This document shows, piece by piece, positions 7,929 through 47,872 of a stretch of DNA of 64,000 nt. The position numbers were made by a program, and so were the translations under genes. The stretch is taken from IMG/VR virus record IMGVR_UViG_3300023297_000003. One strand, written 5' to 3'. Below the pieces are notes generated by a model. That model was not told where the DNA came from. It made no database searches and saw only the letters and a list, made by a program, of their open reading frames with translations. This DNA is from a virus (Duplodnaviria > Heunggongvirae > Uroviricota > Caudoviricetes). Numbering within the stretch: position 1 is the stretch's first letter; the number at the start of each line of letters is the position of its first letter.

Positions 7929-9274
7929 TAAGAAGGCTTGTGTTTTTTGTTTTTCTTTAGTAAACTGCAACCATGGGATTGAGAACTTAAGGTGGCTAAA
8001 TGATTCGGTCTTCTGCCCATAGTTTGCGGTTTGCAAACCCAGGTAAGGTGAGATTGGTAGGCGAACTTATCGGAGAGTACCGCCTTTTTGTCCAATGCAT
8101 CATAAACGACATATGGGAGAAGGGGTTTCCAGCGTGGAACATTTTCCCAAGCTCAAACAGACTGGACTTCAAGGGCAAGAATCATTTACCCACAAAATAT
8201 CTCAAGCAGTTCCCAACGTGGATGTCAGCAAGGCTTCAGCAAGCTGCTGGAAAACAAGCCATTATGATGCTCAAGGCAGCCACAGAGAAACGACGGAAAC
8301 AACTTTTCGTGTTGGCCAACCTTCAGCGAGAAGGTGGCAAGTACAAACGACTTCAGTCAAAGGTTGACCGGCAACCTCTTGTTAAGCCAGATGCTTCAGG
8401 AATCAATCTGGAACTAGACTCTCGCTTTGTGAGTTTCCAAGAGACAGACATCTTTTGTTTGTCCAACTCTCATCCCTTGGTATTCCACACATTAGAGTCC
8501 CCATCAAAAGAACTCGATGCTCCAACAAGTGGCAGACTAAAGGAATCCTGAAAGTGTGTGTTAGGATCTCTGAAGACACACTACATCTAATTTACGAAGT
8601 ACCAAACAAAAACGTTTCAGGAAGTCAGATAGTTGGGGCAGACCAGGGATTAGTTACTGCGTTGACTCTTTCAAATGGTGCAACGACACTGTCGTGTCCC
8701 CATGGGCATAACCTCCAAACGATCCAAGCAAAACTTGCTCGTAAGCAAAAGGGATCGAATGGCTTTCGTCGTACCCAAGAGCATCGCAAGAACTACATCC
8801 ATTGGTCCTTGAATCAACTTAACTTCAAGGACGTGAAAGAAGTTCGTTTTGAGAAGATCAAGCATCTCCGTAGGGGTGAACGGAGTTCACGTTATATGTC
8901 ACACTGGCGTTACACTTTGATCAAAGACAAACTTGTTCGTCTCTCTGAGGAGGAAGGTTTCCTTTTTCGGGAGGTAGCGAATGAGTTTAGGTCTCAGAGG
9001 TGTAGCCAATGTGGCTGGGTCCGTAAGAGTAACAGGAAAGGTAAGACGTTCAGATGCGGCAAATGTGGTTTTATCACCGATGCTGACTTGAATGCGGCTT
9101 CCAACTTGAAACTCGATCTCTTTGAGATCCAATGGTGGGTGCGGCTAAGTCAAATAAATCGTAAAGGGTTCTTCTGGACTTCTGATGGTTTGTTTGATGA
9201 AGGGCGGGAGCCTATAGTCCCCGTTACCATAAAAGACAATGAAAGCAAGAAATTGCTACAGCATTGTTGACTAT
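7917..9274 (+). mobile_element. Non-autonomous tnpB-only IS200/IS605/IS607-superfamily element, copy 1 (1358 bp)
   Basis: Near-identical to 46514-47872 in inverted orientation; shared ends AGCTTACCTTGATAAG ... CATTGTTGACTAT. Confidence 0.9.
8000..9270 (+). pseudogene. tnpB: TnpB split by a 1-nt deletion (T4 at 8453-8456 versus T5 in copy 2)
   Basis: ORFs 8000-8551 and 8455-9270 together match the intact 423-aa copy; GADQG, RFEKI, zinc finger and DADLNAA are retained. Confidence 0.9.
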
Positions 9275-9299
9275 AGTTCCTCTACCAAAGGTAAGGGAC

Positions 9300-25817: not shown

Positions 25818-26637
25818 TGAAGGGCACTGACAAACACCAGTGTAAATGGTGCAAGCAAAGGAAAGCGGTCTCCTCTGTCCGAGGGCGAAACTTCCGGTGG
25901 CGGCAGGATCACCCTCTCTGTTTCCAGTGTTACCGTTCACTACAAGAACGTCTGAAGCAACAATTGATCGTAGCCCAAACCCAGGAACAGGTGGCTGTCT
26001 GATGGTTACATTCATCCAGATCGTCCTGAGCTGGTTTGTGGTCGGGGGGTTTGTCCAGATGCTGTTGTTCCTCGCAGGACTGGCTGGGAGTTACACCCGA
26101 GGACCCGAGTACGCCACCTGGGTGAACGAGCACCCCCACAGGCCCAAGGACAGACCGATGACCCCGAAGACCCTCTTCCTTCTCCTGGGGATGTGGCCGG
26201 TCTTCCTGTTCATCTTCCTCAGGGCATGTCAGGCACACCAGACCCCTGACGAGTGGGTGCTGCGGACAGCAGAGCGACAGGACCAACGACAACGAGACCA
26301 GATCGAAGCTGCTGTGGTCCGTATCCATTGGTGGAGTAATTTCACTACCAGGATAGCCACCGAGGGCAACCCCTTGATCTACGTTCGGACGGTGTTTTAC
26401 AAAGACGGTTCCGGGGCCACCACCCACATGGTTCTCGGAGGCCCTGACAGCGTGTACCTGCCCGTGAGGCTGTCAGACCAGGACCGACCGCTAGTTGCAC
26501 CAATGAAACCTGTGCGGACGTTAGACGCAGCCAAGCGGCTGTGTGACGAGGACATCAAATGGTTGACAGCATGCCTTCCTGGGAACGAGGTTTCGAGGAG
26601 TGTCCTGTCCCGTCAAAGCAAGGAGATCCCCATATGA
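25817..26637 (+). other. Small zinc-ribbon ORF (25817-26002) and a two-TM membrane protein (26002-26637)
   Basis: CKWC..CFQC; two hydrophobic segments. Confidence 0.65.
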
Positions 26638-27206
26638 CCGCTTCCAACAGATGCCCCCTGTGTGGCAACCCTCAGATCGGCTGTAACCTGGACTGTTCCC
26701 ACTGTCGTGTGGTGGCCCGGAAGAACTACCGGGGCCGTCCAACGAAGATCAACCTCTACCTGGATGACGTCCGGGGTTGTCCCTTTCCCGGCGACACGGA
26801 AGGTCCCTGGTACGAATCAAGACACATGAAGATCATCCCAGACGAACCAGGTGAGGGTATCGATTGGTTCGTCGTCCGCACCTACGCACGGTGCATCGAG
26901 ATGCTCCAGCAGGAGGCCATCGGGACCCTGTCCCTGGACCACGACATCGCTGACTACAGTCCCGAGAAGGGGCGTGAGGTGACGGGATATGATGTCCTGT
27001 GCTGGCTGGAAGAGCAACTCGATCGAGACATCAATTTCCCGATCCCGAACGATATCAGGGTCCACTCCGCCAACCCGGTAGGACGGAAGCGCATGGCCTC
27101 TGTGATCGAGCGGCTGGCCCGGAAACGGGATCTGCTGGCACGGATGAACAGACGACAGGAAGACACCCCCTCACCAAGTCGGTGGGGAAATGGGCTGAAC
27201 AAGTGA
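26634..27206 (+). CDS. Cyclic-phosphate-processing receiver (cREC)-like domain protein
   Basis: LYLDDVR.CP, VRTY, LSLDHD, TGYDVL.WLEE, VHSANPVGR..M. Confidence 0.8.
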   Translation: MTASNRCPLCGNPQIGCNLDCSHCRVVARKNYRGRPTKINLYLDDVRGCPFPGDTEGPWYESRHMKIIPDEPGEGIDWFVVRTYARCIEMLQQEAIGTLSLDHDIADYSPEKGREVTGYDVLCWLEEQLDRDINFPIPNDIRVHSANPVGRKRMASVIERLARKRDLLARMNRRQEDTPSPSRWGNGLNK

Positions 27207-27222
27207 GCAAACGATAGGTACC

Positions 27223-27250
27223 GGGATCATCTGACCGACCTACAGAGTAG
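27223..27250 (+). promoter_or_regulatory. Promoter-like motif GGGATCATCT-N12-GAGTAG
   Basis: Exact motif upstream of the macro domain gene. Confidence 0.8.
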
Positions 27251-27291
27251 TCTAGGTGAGGGCAAAGGACCCCCGCAAGGAGACACGCAAA

Positions 27292-27864
27292 ATGAGGCTG
27301 CATTACTACCGGGGGAACATCGTCCACGCACAGGTGGACGCCATCGTGAACGCTGCCAACCCCAGGATGCTTGGCGGTGGGGGGGTCGACGGGGCCATTC
27401 ACCGAGCGGCGGGTCCGGGGCTGAGGGCTGCGTGCAGGGAGTTCCCCGAGTTGGAACAGGGTGTCCGCATTCGGGTCGGACAGGTTCGGACGACCGAGGG
27501 CTTCGACCTGGACGCCGATTTCGTCATCCACACGGCGGGGCCGATCTTCGCTGGGTACGGCATACGAAGCCTCCGACCGGGCGAGCGGGTCGAACCCCGG
27601 CCCCTCAATGAACTCATGCACTGCATCGTCAACTGCCTGAAGGAAGCGGCCCGGATCGGAGCCAACAGGGTCGCCTTCCCCGCCATCTCAGCAGGGGTCT
27701 ACGGGGGCAGCGTGTCGGCCTTTGCCCACGCCCTCCACGAGGCCATGAAACAGGAAGCCCGCCTCCCCATCGAGGAGGTCCAGGTCGTCCTGTTCCAGGA
27801 CAACGAGTTCCAGGAGTTTAGCGACTGGCAGGAAACAGCGGACGACGCTCCGCCCATCCCCTGA
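27292..27864 (+). CDS. Macro domain ADP-ribose hydrolase (MacroD/YmdB-like)
   Basis: VDAIVNAAN..MLGGGGVDGAIHRAAG, VIHTAGP, AFPAISAGVYG. Confidence 0.95.
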   Translation: MRLHYYRGNIVHAQVDAIVNAANPRMLGGGGVDGAIHRAAGPGLRAACREFPELEQGVRIRVGQVRTTEGFDLDADFVIHTAGPIFAGYGIRSLRPGERVEPRPLNELMHCIVNCLKEAARIGANRVAFPAISAGVYGGSVSAFAHALHEAMKQEARLPIEEVQVVLFQDNEFQEFSDWQETADDAPPIP

Positions 27865-28710: not shown

Positions 28711-28758
28711 CTACTCCATCGGGAAACGAAGGGATCATCTGAGAGGCCCACTGAGTAG
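28711..28758. promoter_or_regulatory. Divergent motif pair sharing a single GATC: CTACTC-N16-GATC-N16-GAGTAG
   Basis: Symmetric geometry about GATC at 28733-28736; divergent genes on both sides. Confidence 0.75.
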
Positions 28759-28779: not shown

Positions 28780-29112
28780 ATGGCGGAAAAGGACGACACC
28801 AAAGAACTGAAGATGTGGTACGCTTTTGGGTTTCGGTCTCCCACGCAGTCACACCACCTCTATGAGGGGCGTATCGAGGCCGAGACCATAGAGGACGCCT
28901 TCGACTTCGTGTTCCGCCACGCTGACAACAGGAACAGGTTCAAACGCTATGTCGGTTTTTGGGTGCAGGAAAACATGATGAGCCGCACAGGGGATCTGCG
29001 TGTCGGATGGATCACCCCCTCAAGATACATGTCCCCCTCCTACCAGTGGAGATTACGAAAACCCGAAGACGTCCCGTTGAGGACGGAGGTGACAGCAAAT
29101 GAAAACCCCTGA
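28780..29112 (+). CDS. Hypothetical protein, first gene of the helicase operon
   Basis: RBS after the motif; overlaps the helicase start. Confidence 0.65.
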   Translation: MAEKDDTKELKMWYAFGFRSPTQSHHLYEGRIEAETIEDAFDFVFRHADNRNRFKRYVGFWVQENMMSRTGDLRVGWITPSRYMSPSYQWRLRKPEDVPLRTEVTANENP

Positions 29113-31078
29113 AACTCGTACCTTGCGCCCCTATCAGCAGGACTGTTTCCGGCACTTGTTCCGGCACGTCACCAACGGGAGACGAGAGGTAGTGCTGAGT
29201 GGTCCCACCGGAAGCGGCAAATCCCTCATGGTGACCTATCTGGCCGAACGGTTGCTCAACACGGAGATGTTTCGGTTAGCCGTTGTTCTCGCCCCACAGT
29301 GTCAGATTTCGGATGCCTTCATCTATGAGGGAGACCTGAAGATCCGCCCCAGCGAGGAAGTACCCCAGGGAAGAGTGTCTGTTGGGGGGCCACTCACGGT
29401 AGCGGCCCTTCAGTGGTTCCAAGTTCGGGATGGTAAGCGCCGGGAGTACCTCAAAGATCACGTCAGAAGTGTCCGCCCGGTTAACCGGGTGCTGGTCACG
29501 ACACATATGGCGGCGGCAGTCTGGTTTGCCCCTGACCTTCTCCCCAAGGACATGACCGGGCGTCTCCTGATCGTGGACGAGGCACACCACACAGCCCCCG
29601 AGAACGGTGTGGGTACCTTCGTCAAGGAGTGGCAGACCCGAGGGGGCACAGTCATTCACGTGACTGCCACGCCCTTCCGCACGGACGGTGATACCCTTAT
29701 TGATGACAACGCCCCCCGCTGGGACCGCACGCTGGCATCCCACATGGAGGGAGGCCAGTACGCACCGGGGCAGCTTTCTTTCCGCACACATCCTCTGGGC
29801 ATAAAGGCGAACACGACGAATCAGCTTGCTGGCGAGTCCATGACCAGTACTGCCCCACTCCAAACCTGTATCGACATCGTGGACTTGTGGGTCAAGGACA
29901 AGCGCCCCAAGGCTGTCATCATCGTCCCCGCTAACAGTGCCGATGCGTGGTCTAAACGGCTGGAGGACGAGTTCACCAGGCAGGGAGCGAGGGTACACAA
30001 CGCCATCAAGGGGGGGCAACGAGCCACCGACGCCCTCAAGCACCTCCTCCGAAAGGAACGTCGGGTCCGAGCCTACGAGGACTCCACCGTAGACGTGATC
30101 CTTGCCTGTGCCCGGTTCAATGAGGGAACCGACTGGCCCCTGTGCAGCCATGTCTACAACATCGGCCTGACCAGTTCCTTCGTCCGCATCCTTCAACGCC
30201 TGGGGCGGGCGTTGCGCTTCAAGGGAGCCATCGATGGCTACCCCGAGGAGCACAAGAACACGGCCACCTTCACCTTCCTGGTACCCTGTGTGACCGAGAA
30301 CTTGTTTGCCCAGTTCGAACAGCAGCACCAGGATCATGCCTTCCTGACGGCGTGCTTCATGGCGGATTTTAGTGTCGGCCAGGACTACATCCTGGGGGAC
30401 ATCCAGCGACGTTTGGAGGACATCGGGCACAAGCGTCAGGGCAAAAAGCATCGCCCGGCGGAGGAAACCTGGGAGGATGTCACCCAGTTCATCGGGGCTG
30501 ATGTTCAACAGTGCCGGGAGGCCATGGGTCTCATGGTCAAGGCCGTTATCCTTCTCCGTGAGAGTGGGGTCAAGAAACCGACCAACAAAGAGGTGGCCCA
30601 CTACCTGAGGACAGCGATGCGGTTGTCCAAGGAGCAGATGGAACAGGCTGAACGAGCACTGGCGTACAGCATCCTCAAAAAACAAACCCGAGCCTTCTCC
30701 TACTTTCACAAGACCCTGTGGAGGAAGGCCCAGGGCGGGGATTTGTCTGACTACCGCATCATCCGAGAGGAGTTGAGGCCGGTCTTCGACGCAGTGATCC
30801 AAGAGTTCGAAGGGGCGACGGCGGACATTGGTCAGGCGGACAGGGTCGTTGACTTCCTGTCCCGTTTCGAGGGCAGGACAGCGAAGCAGGTCGCTGAACG
30901 TCTGAAAGCTGCGATACCTCCGCCACAGTTCACCTTGGCTCAGATAGATGACGCCTTGATGTCCTACTTTGAGGAGCACAAAGTTGAACCCCCTATTGAT
31001 AACACCGACGCTTCCCCTCACTTCAAGCTCCCCCCGATCACAATCAACTGGAAGCAGGTCTACGGGCAGATGCCATGA
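29099..31078 (+). CDS. SF2 DEAH-box helicase (ResIII-like)
   Basis: LRPYQ, GPTGSGKS, IVDEAHH, TATPFRTD, NEGTDWP, QRLGRALR. Confidence 0.92.
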   Translation: MKTPETRTLRPYQQDCFRHLFRHVTNGRREVVLSGPTGSGKSLMVTYLAERLLNTEMFRLAVVLAPQCQISDAFIYEGDLKIRPSEEVPQGRVSVGGPLTVAALQWFQVRDGKRREYLKDHVRSVRPVNRVLVTTHMAAAVWFAPDLLPKDMTGRLLIVDEAHHTAPENGVGTFVKEWQTRGGTVIHVTATPFRTDGDTLIDDNAPRWDRTLASHMEGGQYAPGQLSFRTHPLGIKANTTNQLAGESMTSTAPLQTCIDIVDLWVKDKRPKAVIIVPANSADAWSKRLEDEFTRQGARVHNAIKGGQRATDALKHLLRKERRVRAYEDSTVDVILACARFNEGTDWPLCSHVYNIGLTSSFVRILQRLGRALRFKGAIDGYPEEHKNTATFTFLVPCVTENLFAQFEQQHQDHAFLTACFMADFSVGQDYILGDIQRRLEDIGHKRQGKKHRPAEETWEDVTQFIGADVQQCREAMGLMVKAVILLRESGVKKPTNKEVAHYLRTAMRLSKEQMEQAERALAYSILKKQTRAFSYFHKTLWRKAQGGDLSDYRIIREELRPVFDAVIQEFEGATADIGQADRVVDFLSRFEGRTAKQVAERLKAAIPPPQFTLAQIDDALMSYFEEHKVEPPIDNTDASPHFKLPPITINWKQVYGQMP

Positions 31079-31782
31079 ACAAGTTCCGCAAAAGACTGGC
31101 CGAAATGGGGCTGGTGGAACCCGTATCCGAATGGTTCCTGGACTACGTGGCCCGTATGACACGGTACATGGAGGAAAATGACGGGAGGACACCCCCTCAG
31201 ACGTATGCCTGCGAAGATGGGTACAAGCTAGGGTCGAAAACCAACTCCATCCGAACTAGCTACCGCCGAGGAACTGGTCATAAGCTTACGTCCGAGATGA
31301 TTCGGATGCTCGATGACATTGGCTTCCCGTGGAACGGGAACGGGTGGTTCAAAGGTGTCCTTCGCCGTCTGATTGAGTACAAGGCGGAACACGGTCACTG
31401 CGCCCCCCCTGGCACGCATGTCCACCATGACGGATACAAGCTGGGGAAACGAGTACAAGTGATCCGTTCCGGAAGGAGGGGCATAGGTAGTCTCAAGGTC
31501 ACCTCCGAGATGGTCGAGCAGCTTGACGCTATAGGGTTTGTCTGGGACGCCTGCAACACTGGCAAATGGTGGCCAGAGTTCTACGCCCACATCAAAGCGG
31601 TGCTGGAAAAGTACCCCGTGGGCCACATCCCGAAGGACTACGTGTGCCCCGATGGGTACAAGTTGGGAGAAAAGGCGAGCCATGTTCGATGCGGGAGACG
31701 AGGCAAAGGTTTCCTCCAAGTGATCCCCGAGATGATCGCCAAACTTGATGCCCTCGGTTTCCTCTGGGTGGTTCCGAGATGA
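31075..31782 (+). CDS. Helicase-associated (HA) repeat protein, 3 repeats
   Basis: W....L.EY...HG...P..Y...DGY.LG......R......LD.IGF.W repeated three times. Confidence 0.85.
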   Translation: MNKFRKRLAEMGLVEPVSEWFLDYVARMTRYMEENDGRTPPQTYACEDGYKLGSKTNSIRTSYRRGTGHKLTSEMIRMLDDIGFPWNGNGWFKGVLRRLIEYKAEHGHCAPPGTHVHHDGYKLGKRVQVIRSGRRGIGSLKVTSEMVEQLDAIGFVWDACNTGKWWPEFYAHIKAVLEKYPVGHIPKDYVCPDGYKLGEKASHVRCGRRGKGFLQVIPEMIAKLDALGFLWVVPR

Positions 31783-32705
31783 ACAAGTTCCGGCAACGCC
31801 TCAGTGTGTTGGGTTATGTGCCTTCCTGGCCAGCTTGGTTTGACCTCTTCCTGGAGAAACTGAAGGAATACAAAAAGGAGCGTGGGCACTGTCAGGTGCC
31901 TAAATCCTACAAGTGTCCCGAGGACGGGTACCATCTGGGGGAACGGGTAATGGTTGTTCGGTCAGCTAAGAGAGGCAAAGGGAACGTCACACTGACCGAC
32001 GAGATGACCAAGGAACTCGACGCCATCGGTTTCGTATGGGATCCGAGGGAGTGGTTCCCTGAGTTCCTGGAGAAACTGAAGGAATACAAAAAGGAGCGTG
32101 GGCACTGTCAGGTGCCTAAATCCTACAAGTGTCCCGAGGACGGGTACAAGCTCGGGGGCAGAGTAGATAATGTCCGACAAGCTAAGAGAGACAAAGGGAG
32201 ACTCAAAATAGCCCCCGAAATGATCAAGGAACTCGACGCCATTGGGATCGTGTGGGATCCGAGGGAGTGGTTCCCTGAGTTCCTGGTGAGGCTGAGGGAA
32301 TACAAAAGGGAGCATGGCCACTGTCAGGTGCCGACGTCCTACAAGTGGCCCGAGGACGGATACCATCTGGGGGAACGGGTAAGGGGTGTTCGGTCAGCTA
32401 AGAGAGGCAAAGGGACGGTCATCCTGACCGACGAGATGACCAAGGAACTCGATGCCATCGGGTTCGTGTGGGATCCGAAGGAGTGGTTCCCTGAGTTCCT
32501 GGTGAGGCTGAAGGAATACAAAAAGGAGCACGGGGACTATCAGGTGCCCACATCCTACAAGTGTCCCGAGGACGGGTACAAGCTCGGGACACGGGTAAAG
32601 GGTGTCCGACAAGCTAAGAGAGGCATAGGCAGGATCAAAGTGACTCCCGAGATGATCAAGGAACTCGACGCCATCGGTTTCGTGTGGGAGGTCATCCGTG
32701 CGTAG
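31779..32705 (+). CDS. HA repeat protein, 4 near-identical repeats
   Basis: Four 72-aa HA units. Confidence 0.9.
   Translation: MNKFRQRLSVLGYVPSWPAWFDLFLEKLKEYKKERGHCQVPKSYKCPEDGYHLGERVMVVRSAKRGKGNVTLTDEMTKELDAIGFVWDPREWFPEFLEKLKEYKKERGHCQVPKSYKCPEDGYKLGGRVDNVRQAKRDKGRLKIAPEMIKELDAIGIVWDPREWFPEFLVRLREYKREHGHCQVPTSYKWPEDGYHLGERVRGVRSAKRGKGTVILTDEMTKELDAIGFVWDPKEWFPEFLVRLKEYKKEHGDYQVPTSYKCPEDGYKLGTRVKGVRQAKRGIGRIKVTPEMIKELDAIGFVWEVIRA
31836..32699 (+). repeat. Coding tandem repeat, 4 x 216 bp
   Basis: Units start at 31836, 32052, 32268 and 32484. Confidence 0.9.
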
Positions 32706-33702
32706 GAGGAGCAACAAATTCAGACTGCGGCTCGTTGAGCTTGGGCGGATGAAACCTTGGCCAGCGTGGTTCGATGAGTTCCACTCCCACCTTCAGACGT
32801 ACAAGGCGGAGCACGGGGATTGTGAAGTGCCCCACAACTACAAGTGTGAAGACGGGTACCGCTTAGGGAACAAGGTGGGGCGAATCCGTTCCGCAAGGAA
32901 GCGCCCATCAAACCGTGTGTTGACGGAGGAGATGAGTACTGCCCTCGATGCCATCGGTTTTGACTGGCTGGCTCCAAAAGATCGCTGGTTCCAAAAGTTC
33001 CGGGTTCGTCTGGTGGAATATATGACCGCTCACGACGGCCAAAACCCACCCGTTCCTTATGAGTGCCCCGATGGATACACCCTGGGTAAAACTGCCGCCG
33101 CTGTTCGGGCAGCGAAACGGGCAAGGGCACTGAATAAGAAGGCGTTCCGGCAACTCACGGATGAGATAATTGCTGACCTGGACGCACTTGGATTTGAATG
33201 GGAACCCTCGGAATGGTTCCCCGACTTTGTGCAGCGTTTGCGTGAATACAAGGCGGAACATGGGAACTGTTCGATCCCTGTCAAATTTGAATGTGCGGAT
33301 GGACACAAGTTAGGCCTGAGGGTCCAACGCATCCGAACGAGCATCCGCCGGTTGGAGGAGGGCAGCGATGAGTCGATGCCCCTCCAGGTCACCCCAGAGA
33401 TGGTCTTAAAACTGGATGCCCTCGGGTTCGAGCGGGACCGGAACCTGACGGGCAAATGGTTCCCCAAGTACCTCAGTCACCTGACGAAGTTCTACCGGGA
33501 GCACGGCGACAGCATGGTGCCCAGGGGATATTGCTGTCGGGATGGGTACAAGTTAGGGGCCATGACGAACAGCGTTAGAGAGGGCCGTAGGGACGCAACA
33601 GGTCGGAGGAAAATCACCCTGCCCATGGTTGCTGATCTAGCTGCCCTCGACTTTATGTGGGATGTTCGAATAACGGGATCATCTCGGCCACCTACAGAGT
33701 AG
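32698..33702 (+). CDS. HA repeat protein, 4 repeats
   Basis: NKFR leader plus four HA units. Confidence 0.85.
   Translation: MRRRSNKFRLRLVELGRMKPWPAWFDEFHSHLQTYKAEHGDCEVPHNYKCEDGYRLGNKVGRIRSARKRPSNRVLTEEMSTALDAIGFDWLAPKDRWFQKFRVRLVEYMTAHDGQNPPVPYECPDGYTLGKTAAAVRAAKRARALNKKAFRQLTDEIIADLDALGFEWEPSEWFPDFVQRLREYKAEHGNCSIPVKFECADGHKLGLRVQRIRTSIRRLEEGSDESMPLQVTPEMVLKLDALGFERDRNLTGKWFPKYLSHLTKFYREHGDSMVPRGYCCRDGYKLGAMTNSVREGRRDATGRRKITLPMVADLAALDFMWDVRITGSSRPPTE
33675..33702 (+). promoter_or_regulatory. Promoter-like motif GGGATCATCT-N12-GAGTAG
   Basis: Exact motif; its TAG is the stop codon of the upstream gene. Confidence 0.8.
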
Positions 33703-33721
33703 TCTTGGTAGGAGGTCGTCC

Positions 33722-34607
33722 GTGGGCAAAAGGAACAACAAATTCCGTGAACGTCTCGCCAAGCTTGGGCTGATGAAACCTTGGCCAGCGTGGTTCGATG
33801 TGTTCCTGGCACATCTGAAGGCGTACAAGGAAGAACACGGGGACTGTAAGGTGCCGCAGCTTTACAAGTGTACTGACGGGTACACATTGGGGAACAGGGT
33901 CGGGGACATTCGCAGGTTTCGACAAGGGAAAAGTGTTCGGACAGTGACTCCCTCAATGGTGCCTGTACTGGATCAACTCGGTTTCCTTTGGGAGATCCCC
34001 TGTTGGTTCGACGAGTTCCTCCGGCGTCTGAAGGACTATAAAGCCGAGTACGGCCATTGTCAGGTGCCCACCCAGTACAGATGTCAGGACGGGTATAGAC
34101 TTGGCCCAAAAGTGAATGCTGTTCGGACAGGCAAAAGGCACAAAGTGGGCGTCCAAATCACCCCGAGCAGGGCGGAGAAACTTGAGCAACTAGGTTTCCT
34201 GTGGGATGTCCCGACAGAGTGGTTCCCGGAGTTCCTGGAACATTTGAAGGCGTACAAGGCCGTGCATGGCCGTTGTCAGGTGCGTGGCACCTATGTATGC
34301 GATGATGGCTACAAACTAGGCCATCACACAGCGGGGGTACGAAATCACCGGGTCTTGACCCCCACTATGCGGAGCCAACTCGGTGCTCTCGGCTTTGTCT
34401 GGGACGCCACCACGAAAGGGCAGTGGTGGCCGGAGTTCCTTTGTCACCTCAGAGAGTACATGGACGCACACGGGGGACAGACACCCCCCCAAAAATACGT
34501 CTGCCCCGGCGGATGGCCGTAAACTGACACCCACTCAGATCAACCAGATTGATGTCCTCGGTTTCGTTTGGGATCTCCGCAATCAGAAGAAGGACAACAC
34601 CCCATGA
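33722..34607 (+). CDS. HA repeat protein, 3 repeats plus a broken 4th (in-frame stop at 34522; tail continues in another frame to 34607)
   Basis: CPGGWP* then RKLTPTQINQIDVLGFVW in a shifted frame. Confidence 0.75.
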
Positions 34608-35257
34608 CCACCCCGCAGGCTGACATCCATTCCTTCCCCCCTGAACAACACCCGGAGAAGCACAAGACCAGGACCACGACCCTCGACCTCCTCCGTGACC
34701 CAGAGTGCCCCACGAACCTCTTCTACGACGGGCACCTGACCAGGGACTGGATGGAGTTGTGCGGTGATGCCCCTGACGCTACCTGTGGCCTCCTCCTGGA
34801 CGAAGGCGTCCTTGCCCCCGACCATGGCCGATACATCGGCGTCAACACCAACCAGGGGATCCTTGACCGCAACGCCACCCACTACAACGACGACCGCACC
34901 GAGTGGCGTTGCGGCGACATGTCCCGGCTCCTCCTGGACCTGGACGACCCGACCCTCCGCAACATCGGCGTCCTCGTGTTCGACGGGTTTCGCAGTCCCA
35001 GCAACCTCCACCTGGAGAGCATCCTCCTTCCGATGTTCGCCTTTGCCCAGTCCCAACAGCAGCGCCTGGGACAATTCCTCCTGGTCATCAACCTAGCCCT
35101 CCGGGGCAACGCCAGCGCTCCCTTGGAAAAGGCGAAGCGGCAGTTCGAGGCCATCGTCCACAAACACTGCGGCGTCCAGGTGCCGAAGCAAGCGTTCACT
35201 ACGTACCGCAGCCGAGTCATTCCGATGCAACTCCTCCGCCTTTCCTACGGCTGGTAG
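34604..35257 (+). CDS. Rossmann-fold methyltransferase-like protein
   Basis: MELCG..., YIGVN....L..N, WRCGDM, GVLVFDGF resemble class I MTase motifs I/II/III/IV; divergent. Confidence 0.45.
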   Translation: MTTPQADIHSFPPEQHPEKHKTRTTTLDLLRDPECPTNLFYDGHLTRDWMELCGDAPDATCGLLLDEGVLAPDHGRYIGVNTNQGILDRNATHYNDDRTEWRCGDMSRLLLDLDDPTLRNIGVLVFDGFRSPSNLHLESILLPMFAFAQSQQQRLGQFLLVINLALRGNASAPLEKAKRQFEAIVHKHCGVQVPKQAFTTYRSRVIPMQLLRLSYGW

Positions 35258-35267
35258 GAGGTCGTCC

Positions 35268-35987
35268 GTGGGCAGGAGTAACAGCAACAAATTCCGTAAA
35301 CGCCTCACTGAGCTTGGGCGGATAAAACCTTGGCCAGCGTGGTTCGATGTGTTCCTGGGGGAAATCAAAGCCTATCAGAAATGTCATGGACATTGCCGAG
35401 TGCCGCAGTCCTACCTGTGTGACGACGGGTACAGGTTGGGTGCCCGTGTAAGTAGTGTCCGGCATAACAAGTCCAGACACCTTCCCGAAATGATCGCTGA
35501 ACTTGATGCCCTGAAGTTCGTTTGGGTTGTGTGCGAATGGTTCCCTGAATTCCTGTCCCACATGAAGGAGTACAAAAAGACCCACGGGCACTGCCGTGTC
35601 CCAAAGTCCTACAAATGTCCCGATGGTTACGCCCTTGGGATGAGGGTATCTGATGTCCGGACAAGAAAAAAGGACAAGAAACGTGTAAGCCCTACCTCAG
35701 AGATGATAGCGGCGCTGGACCTTCTTGGGTTCGTCTGGAATGGGAACGAGTGGTTTCCCCAATTCCTGAAGAGGCTGAAGGAGTACCATGCCAAATTCGG
35801 GGACTATTCTCCGGCGCAATCCTACAAATGCCCCGATGGCTACCAACTCGGTGTTCGAACAAACAGTATTCGTTCATCCCGTAATGGTGGGGGTCAGGTC
35901 AAGGTGACTCCCGAAATGGTCACCGAACTGGACGCTCTGGGTTTTGTCTGGAGTCTCAGGGGATCATCCAAGCCCACCCCTGAGTAG
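35268..35987 (+). CDS. HA repeat protein, 3 repeats
   Basis: NKFR leader plus three HA units. Confidence 0.85.
   Translation: MGRSNSNKFRKRLTELGRIKPWPAWFDVFLGEIKAYQKCHGHCRVPQSYLCDDGYRLGARVSSVRHNKSRHLPEMIAELDALKFVWVVCEWFPEFLSHMKEYKKTHGHCRVPKSYKCPDGYALGMRVSDVRTRKKDKKRVSPTSEMIAALDLLGFVWNGNEWFPQFLKRLKEYHAKFGDYSPAQSYKCPDGYQLGVRTNSIRSSRNGGGQVKVTPEMVTELDALGFVWSLRGSSKPTPE
35960..35987 (+). promoter_or_regulatory. Promoter-like motif GGGATCATCC-N12-GAGTAG
   Basis: Motif match; its TAG is the stop codon of the upstream gene. Confidence 0.75.
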
Positions 35988-36010
35988 TCTCCAGTACAAG
36001 GAGGACGAAC

Positions 36011-36346
36011 ATGAAGAACAAGACACCTGAGACGCCCTGGTTCCCCGAGTTCCTGAGTCGCCTGACGGCCTACCGAAAGGCACACGGTCACTGTGTGGTG
36101 CAACGCCTTGGGAGGACGAACAGGACATCCGAGAAGCCCTGGCTCCCCAACTTCCTTTCCCACCTGACGGCGTTCAAGCGGGCGCACGGCCACTGTGCCG
36201 TGCCCCACAACTACGTCAGCCCGGACGGCTACAAGCTGGGAAGCCGTGTCGGAACGGTCCAGGAGGGGCAGCACAAGGTCAGGATGACCCCGGAAAGGAT
36301 CGCCCAGTTGAACGCTCTCGGATTCACCTGGGACACCAAGGAGTGA
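36011..36346 (+). CDS. HA repeat protein, 1.5 repeats
   Basis: Half repeat followed by a full repeat; the 5' leader is duplicated internally. Confidence 0.8.
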   Translation: MKNKTPETPWFPEFLSRLTAYRKAHGHCVVQRLGRTNRTSEKPWLPNFLSHLTAFKRAHGHCAVPHNYVSPDGYKLGSRVGTVQEGQHKVRMTPERIAQLNALGFTWDTKE

Positions 36347-36969
36347 AAATGGAACACAAAACACCACTCGAACTCGTTCAGCGTATCGTTGCACACCACG
36401 GACCGATCCTCGGGAAGCAGGTCGTGTCCCTGTGCGCCAGCGTGGGCTACACCAACAAGCGCTCCACGGGAGCGGTCCTGTTCAACGCCCGCAGAGCGAA
36501 GACCCTGACCAAGGACGCCCATGGCCGATGGACCTGTCCTAAGTCGAAAACGACTGGACAAGCCTGACACGACAGAGGTATCCTTCAGCAATGGACACGA
36601 GGAACCACATCGATAGTGCCTTCATATCCGAGCGGGTGACGCCCGCTGGAGGAGGATGCTATGGACCGTGGAACCCGCCGCCAGAGGACAGCAAATGTCA
36701 TCCGTTCACGTCTTGAAATCTACAGCGCTCCCGAGGATGTGGAGCCACATCGGTACGCCAAGACCCCATCGTTAGCCTGCCACTGCCGCAAGCGCACTTT
36801 CGGTCGTCCTCGTATGAGCCGGGGCATCTGTGACATCGGGTGCCGTGACCGGATCTATCGGTGGCGACGAGAAACACGAGAGTTTAGGACATGGGCACGA
36901 TGCCAGGGTGTGGATTGGGAGGACGACAGCGTCACCCTGATCTTTGTCCCCCGGAACAAGTGGGTGTGA
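36343..36969 (+). other. Two small hypothetical ORFs (36343-36567, 36661-36969)
   Basis: RBSs; co-oriented. Confidence 0.6.
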
Positions 36970-37025
36970 AAGTCCTTGCCGGTCAGAGATCGTCGTGTAG
37001 AGTGGGGCTGTCAGAGGAGGACGTT

Positions 37026-38141
37026 ATGCCCAAAAGACTCACGTTGGATGACGCAGACATTGTTCGTCGGTACCAAGCGGGGGAACTGGAGTTGCACATT
37101 GCTAAGGCACTAGGTGTTTCAGCACCTGTGATTCATCGACGGTTGGCTAAAGCAGATGTTTCTTTCCGCACCCACAGTGAGGCTGCAACAATCGCTCAAG
37201 GCAAACGAGATGCAAAAACAACGGAAAGCCTTCCCGCTGAGTATCTGTCAGGACGTTCTGTCTCTGAGTTAGCGAAGGCAACGGGTTTCAGTCGCAACTG
37301 GGTGCGTATCCGTTTAGAGCGGGCTGGTGTTCCTCTACGGGGGGTACAGGAGGCACATACTCTGATTTGTCACAAGACCTTCCCTACCACAGAGGAGTCC
37401 CTTGAATTAATCGATGGTTTACTTCTTGGTGACGCCTGGTTGGAAAAAACAGGTGGCAGTGAGGGTCGTCTGGGACTAGCACAAAGAGCAGACCGAAAGG
37501 AATGGCTTGAACAGGTTCAAAGGGAACTTAGGGCCGGGGGTGTTAAAAGCAACATAAAACCACGTCCGGCAAGAATCGGTCACATTGGGAAACAGGTTCT
37601 CCGAGGTAACCCGAGTTTACAGTTAAGGACACTGAAATACAAAACATTTACGGACCAGCGCCTCCGTTGGTACCCAAAGGGTAAAAAAATTATTCCTCTG
37701 GACATCCGGCTAACCCCCCGAGCGTTAGCGCATTGGTACTGGGGTGATGGTGGGCTGATTAATACAGGGTATGGGGTAGCCTTTTGCACGGACGGTTTCA
37801 CCTGGGAGGATGTCGAGTTTCTAGCCTCTAGACTGCGGCTACTTTATGGTTGGTCTCCTCGTGTGCAGAGCCACAGAGGGAATCCTAGACTGGTCCTAAG
37901 CCAACGAAAACACCGACTGGAACTGGTGGCCCTAACGGAACCTTTTTGTCCTGATTGCTTCCGATACAAGCTTCAGGTGAGGGGTAAAGCTCCCGCAAAA
38001 ATTGATCAAGTCGAAAAGGAACTCCGTCAACTGAGGGGGCAAGGCTGGACACAAAAACGCATTGCGGAACATTTTCAAATGACCCCGGCATGGGCTGGGT
38101 GGGCCTGCCGACGACTAGGGCTAGAGAAGGAGTCAAACTAA
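37026..38141 (+). CDS. Free-standing LAGLIDADG homing endonuclease with HTH segments
   Basis: IDGLLLGDAW and LAHWYWGDGG; FCTDGF; N- and C-terminal HTH-like segments; own GAGGAGG RBS. Confidence 0.88.
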   Translation: MPKRLTLDDADIVRRYQAGELELHIAKALGVSAPVIHRRLAKADVSFRTHSEAATIAQGKRDAKTTESLPAEYLSGRSVSELAKATGFSRNWVRIRLERAGVPLRGVQEAHTLICHKTFPTTEESLELIDGLLLGDAWLEKTGGSEGRLGLAQRADRKEWLEQVQRELRAGGVKSNIKPRPARIGHIGKQVLRGNPSLQLRTLKYKTFTDQRLRWYPKGKKIIPLDIRLTPRALAHWYWGDGGLINTGYGVAFCTDGFTWEDVEFLASRLRLLYGWSPRVQSHRGNPRLVLSQRKHRLELVALTEPFCPDCFRYKLQVRGKAPAKIDQVEKELRQLRGQGWTQKRIAEHFQMTPAWAGWACRRLGLEKESN

Positions 38142-38825
38142 TGGAAACTGTCATAATAGAAATAAGAGCAGGTGAGGGAGGTCGGGATGCCTCCTTATTG
38201 GTTCATGAACAGTACGGTGTTTATGTGCGATGGGCACAGAGGAGGTCCCTTTGACGTGGTGTTGCTGGAGGACCGTCCCGGTTTCCTTGCCTTCCAGGCG
38301 GTCGGGAAGGGGGCTGTAAGGGCTTTTCGGCATGAAGCCGGTGGTATGAGATGGCAGCGGGTACCCCCCACGGAGAAACGGGGCAGGACACACACGTCAA
38401 CAGTTACTATCGCTATACTCTCTCTCGTGGACGAGCAGACCGTCAAACTGAACGAGCGAGACCTGGAGTGGCAGGCGACCCGTGGCTCAGGTCCTGGAGG
38501 CCAACATCGGAATAAAACCTCGTCTGCAGTAATCCTCACACACAAACCCACGGGTCTGGTTGTCCGAGTAGAGAACGAACGATCACAGTACCGGAATTTA
38601 CAAACGGCGAAGGCAATCCTGTCTGCCCGATTACAGGAGGCAGAGGCATCCTCTCAGTTGGACCAACGTAACCAGCAACGGAAAGCTCAGGTGGGGAGAG
38701 GCATGATGTCCGACAAGGTACGAACTATCGCTCTCCAGAGGGATCAGGTCACAGATCATCGACTGGGGAAACGTATCTCAGCCGTGAAGTATCTGAGGGG
38801 TGAGTTGGACAAACTGGTGGGCTAG
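38141..38825 (+). CDS. Short RF1-type peptide chain release factor, predicted to need a +1 frameshift (join 38141-38251, 38253-38825; about 227 aa)
   Basis: 0 frame METVIIEIRAGEGGRDA...; +1 frame RWQRVPPTEKRGRTHTST, GSGPGGQHRNKTSSAV, QVTDHRLG. Confidence 0.88.
38240..38255 (+). promoter_or_regulatory. prfB-type +1 programmed frameshift cassette AGGAGG-TCC-CTT-TGA-C
   Basis: Internal SD, 3-nt spacer and CTT TGA C match the architecture of the RF2 site. Confidence 0.85.
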
Positions 38826-39456: not shown

Positions 39457-40878
39457 CTAGAATGTAACAGGCATCAAGTTTGAGGCTGTGCCGATCCTTG
39501 GTAACCCAAGTGCCTCGGTAGTAAGCTCCCGGCCCAACGGTAAGGGCTCGGATGACGGTTGCTCTTGCCGTCCGAATCCCAAGGAACTGGTCCGCTTAAT
39601 ACGGAATCGCTCTCTTAGCACTCGTTTTACGCCTCGTGGGTGATCATTAGCTTTGATGTGTTCGTCTCCAGAACGTCTGAGCACACCAGCGCTTCCTACC
39701 CAATCAGCATGAGCTTTCCTGCCGCACGAGCGGCAACGGAACCTTATTGAACTTCGGTTTCCTCGATGAACATAACCACAAGAAGGACACTCCTGCGACG
39801 TGTAAGCAGGGTTCACTTTCTTTGTTGGAGCTTTCCTTTCCAAGTTGATCTGTAACGCCCTGTAAGCAAACCTTTTTTGACCCCTACAACCTCGAAGATC
39901 GAGATCTTCGACCACGAACACCGTCTCGGGATGACGAACGATAAGGGTGTTTACCACACGACCCGTCTCTGTCTTGATCAACCCACTCAATTTGCTCTCA
40001 AGGTGATCCAACTTTGGGCTGTTATCCTTCAAATCCTGCCGTTGGCGATTTGCTCGAAGATTTCTGACACGAGCGTAGAGTTTGTCGAACTTAGGTTTGA
40101 CGTGTTCACCGTAAATCACTCCATCTGATGTAGCTGCAAGGACGTTCAGACCAACGTCAACGCCCAACTTAGGCCAACCTTCCTGTGCTTCGGGAACAAC
40201 CCATTCAGCCTTACTGACCGCCTCAAAGCGCCAAAAGCCTCGCTTGGTTTTGCGGGCTGAGATCCCTTTGCTGACCTGATCAGCTTGTTGAATGTAAAGA
40301 TTCCCAACGAGAGGCAACCAGACGGACTTACGAGCTTCTAACGAAGACACCCTCAACCAGAAGTCCCCGAGAGGGGCTTTAGATGCGTCCTCCAACCGAG
40401 CCGTCATCTCCGACAACCGCATGGGCAGGTTGTCCCTTACGATAGGCTTATTACCTCCGTAGGTGTCCAACAGGGTGTGGTAGGCGTCGAGATGGTCTTG
40501 GGTGATAAACTTCCAGGGCTTACTGATGGCTTTTAATCCGATGACACAGAGTGCTTTGGCGTCCTGTTCGGTGAGGGTACCCTCGTGCTTGAGGTTGGTG
40601 ATAGTCGGTTTCAACTTGCGGGCGTAAGTGGCTTTGGCCCAAGCGCTCACAATTTGGATAGCGTGGTCTCGTGCGATCTTTTCGATTTGGGACGTAAGGT
40701 TGGTGGCCCGTGGGAAGAACGTTTGTTTGGCGGCTTTCGGGAGATTATAGACCTGCTGGTCAAGCATCGTTTGTACGCAAATGCGGACGTACTTGACGTA
40801 TGCTTTGTGTAGGGCTTCCAACTTATCGATCTTGGACTGATTGGTATCCTTGTGAAGTCGGAAGATGCGACACTTCAT
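39457..40878 (-). CDS. tnpB: TnpB, second family (473 aa); probable tnpB-only IS with unresolved ends
   Basis: LGVDVGL, FVVEDL, SQECPSCG..CRSCG, HAD; TTCCTG-N7-CAGGAA hairpin upstream of the start. Confidence 0.9.
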   Translation of the reverse strand: MKCRIFRLHKDTNQSKIDKLEALHKAYVKYVRICVQTMLDQQVYNLPKAAKQTFFPRATNLTSQIEKIARDHAIQIVSAWAKATYARKLKPTITNLKHEGTLTEQDAKALCVIGLKAISKPWKFITQDHLDAYHTLLDTYGGNKPIVRDNLPMRLSEMTARLEDASKAPLGDFWLRVSSLEARKSVWLPLVGNLYIQQADQVSKGISARKTKRGFWRFEAVSKAEWVVPEAQEGWPKLGVDVGLNVLAATSDGVIYGEHVKPKFDKLYARVRNLRANRQRQDLKDNSPKLDHLESKLSGLIKTETGRVVNTLIVRHPETVFVVEDLDLRGCRGQKRFAYRALQINLERKAPTKKVNPAYTSQECPSCGYVHRGNRSSIRFRCRSCGRKAHADWVGSAGVLRRSGDEHIKANDHPRGVKRVLRERFRIKRTSSLGFGRQEQPSSEPLPLGRELTTEALGLPRIGTASNLMPVTF

Positions 40879-44667: not shown

Positions 44668-45579
44668 CTAGGCATAAAACAAACCCTCCTCATCCGGTGG
44701 GTCTTCCTCGGGCACGGGTGGAACCACATGAAAGGACTGGAGAAGTTGTGCGTCCAGCTTTCGCAGGTAGTCCCGCCCGTAGGGACCGTTCTCCAGCTTG
44801 TCCCACAACACGTCGGGCAGATCGCAGGGGATGTCCGGGTGCATCGCCGCTGCGCCCATTGCCAGGGCGGCGACCGTGTCGGTGTCCCCGGTGAAGGCGA
44901 CGCTGGCCTTGAGGATCCCCTTCATCGTCTTGTGACCGGCGAGCGCCGTGACCACCGCACGGAGCACCGGGATTCCCCTGTTGGAGACTGGCCCCTCCCA
45001 GGGTGTCGCCCAGGAGTACCCCGGCACCACATCGTTCAGGTAGTGGGGGAGATCTTTCTGGTCATGACCCTCACGGCAAGCAAACACCAGGGCCGCAGCG
45101 GCAGCGGCTGCATTCATTCCATCTACCGTTGCATGGGTTATGCTGGCCTGCCACACGGCCAAATTCATCGCTTCCCACACGGTTGGGTACAGCCCACAAG
45201 GACCAGCCCGCATTGCACCTCCTGACCTGTCGCTCTGAGGGGTCAGTTTTTGTACCAACTCCGTGCCATTCTGACACTCCAGCAGGACGTTGTAGAAGCC
45301 CGAAGCGTATCCCGGTCGGGGGTCACGCTTGAAAGCGATGAGAAGGCGACGAGCGAGGTACACGGTCGTCCAGGGATCATCCGAGAGCATGAACTCGGCC
45401 ACCCCGCAACTCAACTGAGTATCGTCGGTGTACCGTCCCGGCTTGATCCCGCCCTTGGGGTGCGGGCGATAACCCTGCACCGTGTTGGTCTTGGCGACCA
45501 TCTCAGGTGGGGCAAATTCAAAACCGGCACCGTAAGCATCCCCGATAGCTAGGGCCACCATGAGTCCTGGTTTATCCAT
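44668..45579 (-). CDS. ADP-ribosylglycohydrolase (DraG/ARH family)
   Basis: AIGDAYG, YTDDTQ, GGAMR, THA, GDTDT. Confidence 0.93.
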   Translation of the reverse strand: MDKPGLMVALAIGDAYGAGFEFAPPEMVAKTNTVQGYRPHPKGGIKPGRYTDDTQLSCGVAEFMLSDDPWTTVYLARRLLIAFKRDPRPGYASGFYNVLLECQNGTELVQKLTPQSDRSGGAMRAGPCGLYPTVWEAMNLAVWQASITHATVDGMNAAAAAAALVFACREGHDQKDLPHYLNDVVPGYSWATPWEGPVSNRGIPVLRAVVTALAGHKTMKGILKASVAFTGDTDTVAALAMGAAAMHPDIPCDLPDVLWDKLENGPYGRDYLRKLDAQLLQSFHVVPPVPEEDPPDEEGLFYA

Positions 45580-46513: not shown

Positions 46514-47872
46514 ATAGTCAACAATGTTGTAGCAATTTCTTACTTTCATTGTCTTTTATGGTGGCGGGGACTATAGACTCCCGCCCTTCGTCAAACAAAC
46601 CATCAGAAGTCCAAAAGAACCCTTTACGATTTATTTGACTTAGCCGTACCCACCATTGGATCTCAAAGAGATCGAGCTTCAAGTTGGAAGCCGCATTCAA
46701 ATCAGCATCTATGGTAAAGCCACATTTGCCACATTTGAACGTCTTACCTTTCCTGTTACTCTTACGGACCCAGCCACACTCGCTACACCTCTGAGACCTA
46801 AACTCGTTCGCAACCTCCCGAAAAAGGAAACCTTCCTCCTCAGAGAGACGAACAAGTTTGTCTTTGATCAAAGTATAGCGCCAATGTGACATATAGCGTG
46901 AACTCCGCTTTGATAAGCGGAGATGCTTGATTTTCTCAAAACGAACTTCTTTCACGTCCTTGAAGTTGAGTTGATTCAAGGACCAATGGATGTAGTTCTT
47001 GCGATGCTCTTGGGTACGACGAAAACCATTCGACCCCTTTTGCTTACGAGCAAGTTTTGCTTGGATCGTTTGGAGGGTATGCCCATGAGGACAACGTTTG
47101 GTTGCTTCTCCATTTGAGAGAGTCAACGCAGTTGTGATACCTTGGTCTGCACCAACTATCTGACTTCCTGAGGCGCTTTTGTTTGGCACTTCGTAAATTA
47201 GATGTAGTGTGTCCTCAGAGATCCTAACACATACTTTCAGGAGTCCCCTAGTCTGCCACTTGTTAGAGCAACGGGTCTTTTTGATAGGAATTCTAATGTG
47301 TGGGATTCCAAGGGATGAGAGTTGAACAAACAAAAAGATGTCTGTCTCTTGGAAACCCACAAAACGAGAATCTAGTTCCAGATTGATTCCTGAAGCGTCC
47401 GGTTTCACAAGAGGTTGCCGGTCAACCCTTGACTGGAGGTACTGGTACTTCTTACCTTCTCGCTGAAGGTTAGCCAGCACGAAAAGTTGTTTCCGTCGTT
47501 TCTCCGTGGCTGCCTTGAGCATCATAACGGCTTGTTTACCAGCAGCTTGTTGAAGCCTTGCTGATATCTCTGTTGGGAACTGCTTGAGGTACTTTGTGGG
47601 TAGAAGGCTCTTGCCTTTGAAATCCAGTCTGTTTGAGCTTGGGAAAAAGTCCCACGTTGGAAAGCCATTCTCCCATATGTCGTTTAGAATGCGTTGGACA
47701 AAAAGGCGATACTCTCCGATAAGTTCCCCTACCAATCTCACCTTACCTGGGTTTGCAAACCGCAAGCTATGAGCAGAAGACCGAATCATTTCGCTACCTT
47801 AAGTTCTCAATCCCATGGTTGCAGTTTACTAAAGAAAAACAAAAAACACAAGCCTTCTTATCAAGGTAAGCT
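46514..47872 (-). mobile_element. tnpB-only IS, copy 2 (1359 bp), inserted into a promoter-like motif
   Basis: Ends shared with 7917-9274; joining the flanks gives TGGATCATCC-N12-GAGTAG. Confidence 0.9.
46518..47789 (-). CDS. tnpB: TnpB, intact (423 aa)
   Basis: IVGADQG, VRFEKI, SQRCSECG..CGKCG, DADLNAASNL. Confidence 0.93.
   Translation of the reverse strand: MIRSSAHSLRFANPGKVRLVGELIGEYRLFVQRILNDIWENGFPTWDFFPSSNRLDFKGKSLLPTKYLKQFPTEISARLQQAAGKQAVMMLKAATEKRRKQLFVLANLQREGKKYQYLQSRVDRQPLVKPDASGINLELDSRFVGFQETDIFLFVQLSSLGIPHIRIPIKKTRCSNKWQTRGLLKVCVRISEDTLHLIYEVPNKSASGSQIVGADQGITTALTLSNGEATKRCPHGHTLQTIQAKLARKQKGSNGFRRTQEHRKNYIHWSLNQLNFKDVKEVRFEKIKHLRLSKRSSRYMSHWRYTLIKDKLVRLSEEEGFLFREVANEFRSQRCSECGWVRKSNRKGKTFKCGKCGFTIDADLNAASNLKLDLFEIQWWVRLSQINRKGFFWTSDGLFDEGRESIVPATIKDNESKKLLQHC

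Follow-up and report, generated by a model that had tools for sequence, protein, structure and literature searches.

A huge-phage helicase with a truncated tail repeat, six separate HA-repeat genes and a methyltransferase-fold neighbour: a candidate split module

Superfamily 2 (SF2) helicases that carry HA repeats (PF03457) at their C-terminus have been catalogued. HA domains are also found as an add-on nucleic-acid-binding module on other machines, in TniQ-HA fusions of Tn7-family elements (bioRxiv 10.1101/2025.07.27.667033) and in PLD-nuclease-HA fusions (PMC12191111). The solved HA domain is that of Bacteroides vulgatus BVU_0683(627–691), from Mills et al. 2013 as cited in PMC12191111, and the title of that work, as it appears in the citing article, reports DNA binding by HA. 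Here we analyse a stretch of 64,000 nucleotides (the window) from the IMG/VR virus record IMGVR_UViG_3300023297_000003 (Caudoviricetes), in which an SF2 helicase gene is followed by six genes encoding HA repeats (HA1 to HA6), with a further gene, X, inside the array and another, Y, after it. The helicase class (ResIII plus Helicase_C) and the repeat family are those of the SF2-HA helicases; here, however, the array is distributed over six genes, five of whose products have an N-terminal helix in common, the helicase stops within a unit of another repeat type, and a neighbouring gene encodes a protein with a methyltransferase fold. In the TniQ and PLD-nuclease proteins the connection is covalent and involves one or few HA units, whereas the arrays described here are detached and multi-genic. 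We propose, giving it roughly even chances, that the locus is a split form of a helicase/array/X/Y module of huge phages, in which the shared leader helix of the HA proteins completes the unfinished repeat unit of the helicase.

The window derives from a salt-lake phage of about 520 kb; proteins encoded in it lie on contigs of 521–528 kb in several ENA assemblies. The stretch is carried by 24 salt-lake metagenome runs, none of which is listed as an RNA run. All genes of the locus (orf110, helicase, HA1–HA4, X, HA5, HA6 and Y) are on the + strand between 28733 and 36567 (Table 1). The Pfam HA profile scores above its gathering cut-off of 28.4 bits in six of six genes (73–178 bits, E 2e-20 to 3e-53), and a hidden Markov model (HMM) built from four HA2 units counts 3, 4, 4, 3 plus a partial, 3, and a partial plus 1 units in HA1 to HA6, in agreement with an earlier note on this DNA, which had described an SF2 helicase followed by six HA genes with 18 complete and 2 partial repeats. 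All HA proteins are basic (isoelectric point, pI, 9.3–10.1), and a predicted model of HA1 residues 1–92 contains three helices per unit at a predicted local distance difference test score (pLDDT) of about 90. Foldseek comparison of this model with the PDB returned nothing with E below 3.7, and the HA profile of the window did not reach the solved HA chain; the TD-unit profile described below and phmmer with HA2 likewise yielded no relevant solved chain. The basic pI and the title cited above are indirect pointers to nucleic-acid binding, and we infer that the HA arrays bind DNA. A literature search on the HA domain returned unrelated papers only.

The helicase retains intact motifs (GPTGSGKS at residue 35, DEAH at 160, TATP at 189 and QRLGRALR at 366); motifs I, II, III and VI and both RecA-like domains are present, and the motif columns are invariant in 30 relatives. 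Pfam assigns ResIII (E 1.6e-11) and Helicase_C (E 1.4e-5). Helicase motifs are present from residue 8 onwards, Pfam and further family libraries detected no nuclease family in the protein, and its similarity to helicases of the restriction type and to RadD and PbeA is only remote. We found 45 relatives, many of them on contigs of 0.1–0.5 Mb. Among cultured phages the sole helicase match is 24% identical, in a Klebsiella phage, and HA2 as query found no HA match at E 1e-5. Single-protein scans of IMG/VR for close relatives found nothing.

Most members of this helicase family end in 4–7 tandem copies of a tail repeat of about 70 residues, here called TD, with the consensus LTxxxIxxAIxxYxxxHGxxP..SGDASxYFG..W...SLxxLCxELGL and a weak match to Pfam HNH_repeat (PF18780). 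Using a TD profile of 70 positions derived from 28 units, we found that residues 608–657 of the window helicase match positions 2–48 (24.9 bits, E 6.7e-10 as a single comparison). Since the protein ends two residues after this match, the last helix of the unit, corresponding to the last 20 positions, is missing. Seven other helicases, from two clades that are 30–55% identical to the window helicase, end in the same manner at TD positions 48–52, whereas the last unit of the fused relatives is complete, ending at positions 63–69. A comparison of TD with HA by hhalign gave a probability of 18%, so homology between the two repeats is not established.

Five of the six HA proteins begin with a common leader. 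A six-frame translation of the whole window contains five instances of NKFR.RL..[LM]G, always at the starts of HA1 to HA5; the HA1 leader reads MNKFRKRLAEMGLVEP. More generally the leaders follow hxxxhxxhGh, for which NKFRKRLAEMGL is an example from the window. The common leader claimed in the earlier note is thus present in five genes and is conserved across related phages, and the extension PWPAWFD, which the note had called usual, applies to HA3–HA5 only, where PWPAWF follows the leader. Comparable leaders head the array genes of locus L001 (NALGHKLVEMGL) and locus L007 (KALGRHLVTMGL); both array genes of L008 start with RNSREIAVILGLV, carrying the leader RNSREIAVILGL, and similar leaders are found in L017 and L018. 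In the five split-type loci with gene context (the window, L001, L007, L008 and the contig of P0004), separate array genes adjoin the helicase, and in the four with readable DNA these genes begin with an amphipathic helix followed by G-L; the P0004 contig is known by gene layout only. The leader also heads X, a protein without HA repeats, in L001 (MNALEDKLAQLGL) and L007 (MNALDAKLTQMGL), and in the fused protein P0171 the last helix of a TD unit precedes the X part.

The relatives contain fused, split and TD-array versions of the locus, and the number of HA units varies between 2 and 18. Fused forms include P0005, which is 42% identical to the window helicase and carries five HA units on the helicase; L002 and L010, in which a helicase fused to five HA units is followed by X at 35% identity; P0171, a single chain of helicase, 5 TD units and X; P0215, a single chain of helicase, HA and X; and P0006, P0008, P0011 and P0015, which are helicases with 6–7 TD units. 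The fused proteins P0171, P0215, P0006, P0008, P0011 and P0015 share helicase family (30–55% identity), X and part order with the window, but combine all parts in a single polypeptide that lacks both a leader and a truncated unit. Split forms include L001, where the helicase is followed by three HA genes and a 244-residue protein 51% identical to X; L007, with the helicase, one HA gene of 2 units, X, a homologue of Y and then HU; and the P0004 contig, with three HA genes ahead of the helicase and a 240-residue gene of the size of X after it. A second helicase clade, comprising L008 (7989–11602) and L018 (9000–13288), has detached arrays of TD units instead of HA, with 8–9 units per gene (9 and 8 in the two genes of L008); these array genes begin with a TD-type last helix, and no X is adjacent. 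In 10 of 14 IMG/VR loci, X lies directly after the helicase. The natural fusions, together with this adjacency, indicate that helicase, repeat array and X are one functional module, which on these sequence comparisons is conserved in huge phages. The earlier note's view of the HA arrays as detached forms of a helicase C-terminal array is borne out by the fusion in P0005 and by the one or three separate HA genes of other relatives. Its general statement that HA is usually fused to the C-terminus of SF2 helicases needs a correction: stand-alone HA-only proteins are common too (more than 100 clusters elsewhere), so that detachment from the helicase is not unusual in itself.

These arrangements are most simply read as the outcome of a cut in an ancestral fused protein, made in the loop that precedes the third helix of a repeat unit; the severed helix would have been kept, or acquired, by the downstream genes as their N-terminus. 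The helicase would then keep helices 1 and 2 of one TD unit, the leader of the five HA proteins would most likely supply the missing third helix, and a continuous array would be rebuilt without a covalent link. One helicase could thereby carry any of several alternative basic tails of 3–4 HA units, which may tether or direct the helicase, a putative translocase, on DNA, with X as the probable enzymatic or cofactor-binding partner of the module. Docking domains of modular polyketide and non-ribosomal peptide synthases, and split-domain complementation more widely, work on a similar principle, a C-terminal element being completed by the N-terminal helix of the next subunit; the proteins are unrelated, and here several partners would share one acceptor in an interaction that is predicted. 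If docking is true, the locus would represent a compact natural way of giving one motor several exchangeable DNA-binding modules, and helicase and methyltransferase-fold protein would form a conserved, hitherto uncharacterised module of huge phages. The occurrence of natural fused, split and expanded versions in one phage lineage makes the role of HA tails testable.

Whether the leader docks on the helicase tail, as the earlier note had suggested, is in our estimate close to a coin toss. The truncated helicase unit speaks for it. In the monomer model of HA1 the leader has a pLDDT of 61, compared with about 90 for the HA unit, suggesting only loose packing against its own HA unit. Prediction of a complex between helicase residues 400–659 and HA1 residues 1–92 gave a median score of 0.55 (runs 0.54–0.58) versus 0.02 for the best of three controls, with 100% contact agreement and a partner pLDDT of at least 81, which the tool rates as 'weak support'. 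In the calibration of this tool, 58 of 80 solved complexes attained its mark, as did 2 of 110 mismatched pairs; scores of 0.60 or below comprised only 7 of the 80 solved complexes, together with both passing mismatches.

Several observations weigh against docking and the explanation built on it. The complex score lies in the weak band of the tool and no interface was returned, so that contact through the leader is not established. Joining the leaders to the helicase tail in silico raised the profile score by only about 1 bit, which is not significant against shuffled sequences (mean 31.0, standard deviation 0.8), and an anchored position matrix, in which four leaders were mis-anchored, did not demonstrate similarity between the leader and the last helix of TD or HA. 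Five leader-bearing proteins would have to compete for one acceptor, and X and HA6 of the window have no leader. X begins with a helix weakly resembling the leader even in the fused loci L002 and L010, whose helicase has no truncated unit. A part-repeat (for example ...RKARLDALGFVWD) also stands at the start of many unrelated HA proteins that occur alone, so arrays of this kind may generally have a helix capping their N-terminus. Lastly, the link between HA and DNA binding comes solely from the title of Mills et al. 2013, as quoted in PMC12191111.

The alternative that survives best is gene fission and duplication without docking, in which the HA proteins act alone, for example as nucleoid-associated or regulatory proteins, the leader does no more than cap the first unit, as any HA array would require, and the helicase tail is a relic. 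The wide distribution of stand-alone HA-only proteins, many with a part-repeat equivalent to the leader, fits this, as does the fused P0005, in which a helix of the helicase itself (GKTAQGVAEYLSGR) stands where the leader would be, directly ahead of the first HA unit. Among HA3, HA4 and HA5 the start regions, with the ribosome-binding site, are 64–77% identical in nucleotides, indicating whole-gene duplication, and HU genes lie near the module in relatives. Against it, the leader is also found on X, a protein free of HA repeats, in L001 and L007, and helicases of two distant clades are cut at one and the same position of the unit. The poor packing of the leader in the monomer model and the difference between the complex score and its controls also argue against fission alone, which we regard as possible, though on the unlikely side.

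The docking explanation has a more ambitious version, in which the helicase is a platform with one C-terminal 'socket' for which clients compete by means of the shared helix, namely the five HA arrays and, in relatives, X. One motor would be re-equipped with alternative DNA-binding tails or with an enzyme, and the three transcription units proposed below could shift the mix of clients during infection. We consider this version unlikely as it stands; the idea of swappable subunits itself is plausible but unproven.

The earlier note had compared the HA proteins to exchangeable HsdS specificity subunits, and a Type I restriction-modification-like system would accordingly have the helicase as HsdR, X as HsdM and the HA proteins as HsdS. 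The likeness is one of layout, in that a motor and a protein with a methyltransferase fold are encoded together with separate subunits for DNA binding. A ResIII domain with weak matches to restriction-type helicases, the methyltransferase-fold partner next to the helicase in most loci and the differing number of HA units between relatives are compatible with such a system. But the helicase, with its motifs starting so close to the N-terminus, has no nuclease domain; X has no DNA-methyltransferase family match and none of the HsdM motifs (GxGxG or (D/N)PP(Y/F)); and the HA proteins match only PF03457, with no HsdS-like architecture and no restriction logic around them. Column entropy in the HA unit is spread across many positions and not concentrated in a few code-like sites, so a repeat code of the TALE or PUF kind is not indicated. 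Four DNA runs showed no differences, insertions, deletions, joints or loose ends where their contigs cover the stretch, although these contigs break within the HA2 repeats, where copy-number variants could be missed; interchange of HA subunits, as pictured in the earlier note, thus finds no backing in the runs. We consider a Type I-like system very improbable, and there is no support for sequence-specific binding by the array or for an anti-host, anti-competitor or protective role. Taken as a whole, the earlier note was right about the anatomy, the detachment and the leader, and its HsdS analogy and interchangeability found no support; its account had left out X and Y as conserved members of the module, as well as two deletion scars in the array.

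By analogy with internal proteins of phage T4, which carry N-terminal capsid-targeting peptides, the leader might instead be a sorting signal that sends the proteins, for example, into the capsid, to be injected with the DNA, or into a compartment of the phage. It is a short N-terminal peptide common to otherwise different proteins, the HA arrays and the X of L001 and L007, and some leaders end in L-x-E (GLVE, GLLE), recalling prohead protease sites; anti-defence-like genes (macro, and in relatives NADAR and Lar) lie in the neighbourhood. Against this, HA2 to HA5 lack the L-x-E ending (LGYVPS, LGRMKP, LGLMKP, LGRIKP), and a sorting signal fails to explain why the helicase ends just before the helix that the leaders resemble. 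Such a role of the leader seems to us very improbable.

The array genes seem to be partly maintained and partly decaying. The HA2 units are mutually 85–90% identical in nucleotides, and the ratio of nonsynonymous to synonymous substitution rates (dN/dS) of 0.34–0.64 between them, with a median of 0.28 across unit pairs with finite dS, indicates that the HA repeats are under purifying selection, with the synonymous sites near saturation (pS 0.73) in these estimates. Two units are deletion scars, the fourth unit of HA4 and the partial unit of HA6. The former was hit by an internal out-of-frame deletion, and its last helix (LTPTQINQIDVLGFVWD) persists in another frame, as a third remnant of a repeat besides the two partial units that the earlier note had counted; this remnant ends in an ATGA overlap with X and is identical in the DNA runs covering it. 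In HA6, the leader and the greater part of one unit are gone. A programmed frameshift at the HA4/X junction was considered and rejected, since the frames fit an internal deletion and a slippery stop context is absent. A decaying duplication, which the earlier note had raised against its own proposal and in which the extra HA genes would be redundant copies being lost, can appeal to both scars but is most improbable as a general account, as all six reading frames are open, dN/dS is well below 1 (with the caveat of the near-saturated synonymous sites), conservation extends over the leader and the start regions, a gene-start motif is retained twice within the array and the sequence is identical across the DNA runs.

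Table 1 Features of the helicase/HA locus, with positions in the 64,000-nucleotide window (aa, amino acids; nt, nucleotides; ORF, open reading frame)
Feature	Position	Strand	Basis or remark
Gene-start (promoter-like) motif ahead of the operon	28733..28758	+	exact GATCATC-N13-GAGTAG, 21 nt before the ORF start at 28780
110-aa ORF (orf110), overlaps helicase start	28780..29112	+	without family match
SF2 helicase, 659 aa	29099..31078	+	Pfam ResIII, DEAD, Helicase_C
Truncated terminal TD unit of helicase (aa 608–657), last helix missing	30920..31069	+	TD profile
HA1: leader and 3 HA units, ATGA-coupled to helicase	31075..31782	+	Pfam HA, unit HMM
HA2: leader and 4 units of 72 aa	31779..32705	+	Pfam HA, unit HMM
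HA3: leader and 4 HA units; 3' end encodes second motif	32698..33702	+	Pfam HA, unit HMM
Internal gene-start motif; GAGTAG contains HA3 stop codon	33677..33702	+	exact match, 19 nt before HA4 start
HA4: leader, 3 HA units and truncated fourth	33722..34522	+	unit HMM; frame ends ...YVCPGGWP (stop)
Out-of-frame remnant of HA4 fourth unit (LTPTQINQIDVLGFVWD...), deletion scar	34524..34607	+	three-frame translation
X: 217 aa, predicted class I methyltransferase fold	34604..35257	+	predicted structure, Foldseek
HA5: leader and 3 HA units; 3' end encodes third motif	35268..35987	+	Pfam HA, unit HMM
Internal gene-start motif; GAGTAG contains HA5 stop codon	35962..35987	+	exact match, 23 nt before HA6 start
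HA6: leaderless; partial unit (first helix only) and 1 complete HA unit	36011..36346	+	Pfam HA, unit HMM
Y: 74-aa basic protein, pI 10.5	36343..36567	+	without family match; L007 homologue

The genes are tightly spaced, with ATGA overlaps at the helicase/HA1 and HA1/HA2 junctions, an 8-nt overlap between HA2 and HA3, a 4-nt overlap between HA6 and Y, and a 10-nt gap between X and HA5. The product of orf110 is unlike that of the gene upstream of the L001 helicase, and orf110 therefore probably lies outside the conserved module.

For X, the most likely start is ATG 34604, not TTG 34568. Its predicted model (pLDDT 95.5, predicted template modelling score 0.92) has the Rossmann-like, seven-stranded fold of class I S-adenosylmethionine-dependent methyltransferases: among the best 50 Foldseek matches listed, almost all are methyltransferases, and a second aligner superposed 175 residues on class I methyltransferases, RNA methyltransferases among them, with Z 13.3 and a root-mean-square deviation of 3.4. 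Pfam, NCBIfam and PADLOC gave no match, including none to a DNA-methyltransferase family, so that the methyltransferase-like gene of the earlier note is upheld in its predicted fold, is without a family and has a corrected start. Direct reading of the sequence found neither GxGxG nor (D/N)PP(Y/F). The loop after strand 1 reads ELCGDAPD, with a single glycine, and strand 2 ends in N81, where most relatives have D (consensus RFIGVD); the GD that follows strand 3 is retained, as is the invariant D127. X may be catalytically active; its cofactor motifs are degenerate. An exhaustive search found about 90 relatives of X at the 50% cluster level, two of them the fusions P0171 and P0215, and its nearest Atlas clusters are viral hypothetical proteins. 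Y, which matches no known family, has a counterpart immediately behind X in L007 (3590–3793), to which it is 54% identical (E 3e-23); in the two phages the protein has 67–74 residues and a pI of 10.5, and it closes the module. Directly 3' of the module lies a LAGLIDADG homing endonuclease gene with helix-turn-helix domains (36891–38141). As an HU gene occupies the place after Y in relatives, this endonuclease may mark an insertion.

The motif GATCATC-N13-GAGTAG has 16 matches in the window at up to 2 mismatches, compared with 1.2 expected, and all 13 exact copies sit 5–101 nt upstream of an ORF start on the same strand. The two promoter motifs that the earlier note had placed inside the array are both exact copies. 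A sigma-70 scan found no + strand site within the array. Enrichment and position suggest that the motif acts as a promoter; if so, the locus would comprise three transcription units, orf110-helicase-HA1–3, HA4-X-HA5 and HA6-Y. Because its GAGTAG provides the stop codons of HA3 and HA5, the motif encodes their near-identical C-terminal tails, GSSRPPTE and GSSKPTPE, each ending at the stop.

Genes for a cREC_REC-domain protein, a macro-domain protein and an ADP-ribosylglycohydrolase surround the module (26559–27864; 44668–45579), and NADAR, NUDIX, SIR2 and Lar genes lie close to the modules of relatives, which suggests a neighbourhood of ADP-ribosylation and anti-defence genes. DarB of phage P1 is a single giant virion protein of the 'polyvalent' anti-restriction type, in which methyltransferase and helicase domains are combined; the present locus may resemble it in having a phage helicase with a methyltransferase-fold partner near anti-defence-like genes.

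Elsewhere in the window, a release-factor-like gene (PCRF, RF-1; 38090–38825) is apparently split over two frames, with the EIRAGEGG segment in a 54-residue ORF and the remainder in a 217-residue ORF. Two TnpB-type genes with a Cas12f1-like TNB domain are found on the minus strand (39457–40878 and 46518–47789). Two glycosyltransferase domains and a radical SAM domain occur together in a 1214-residue protein (9264–12908), whose gene is clustered with genes for methyltransferases and for a UDP-sugar dehydrogenase. An intein-like LAGLIDADG/Hom_end insert lies within a fragment of a family A DNA polymerase (62186–63898), and the window further encodes DNA methylases and homing endonucleases.

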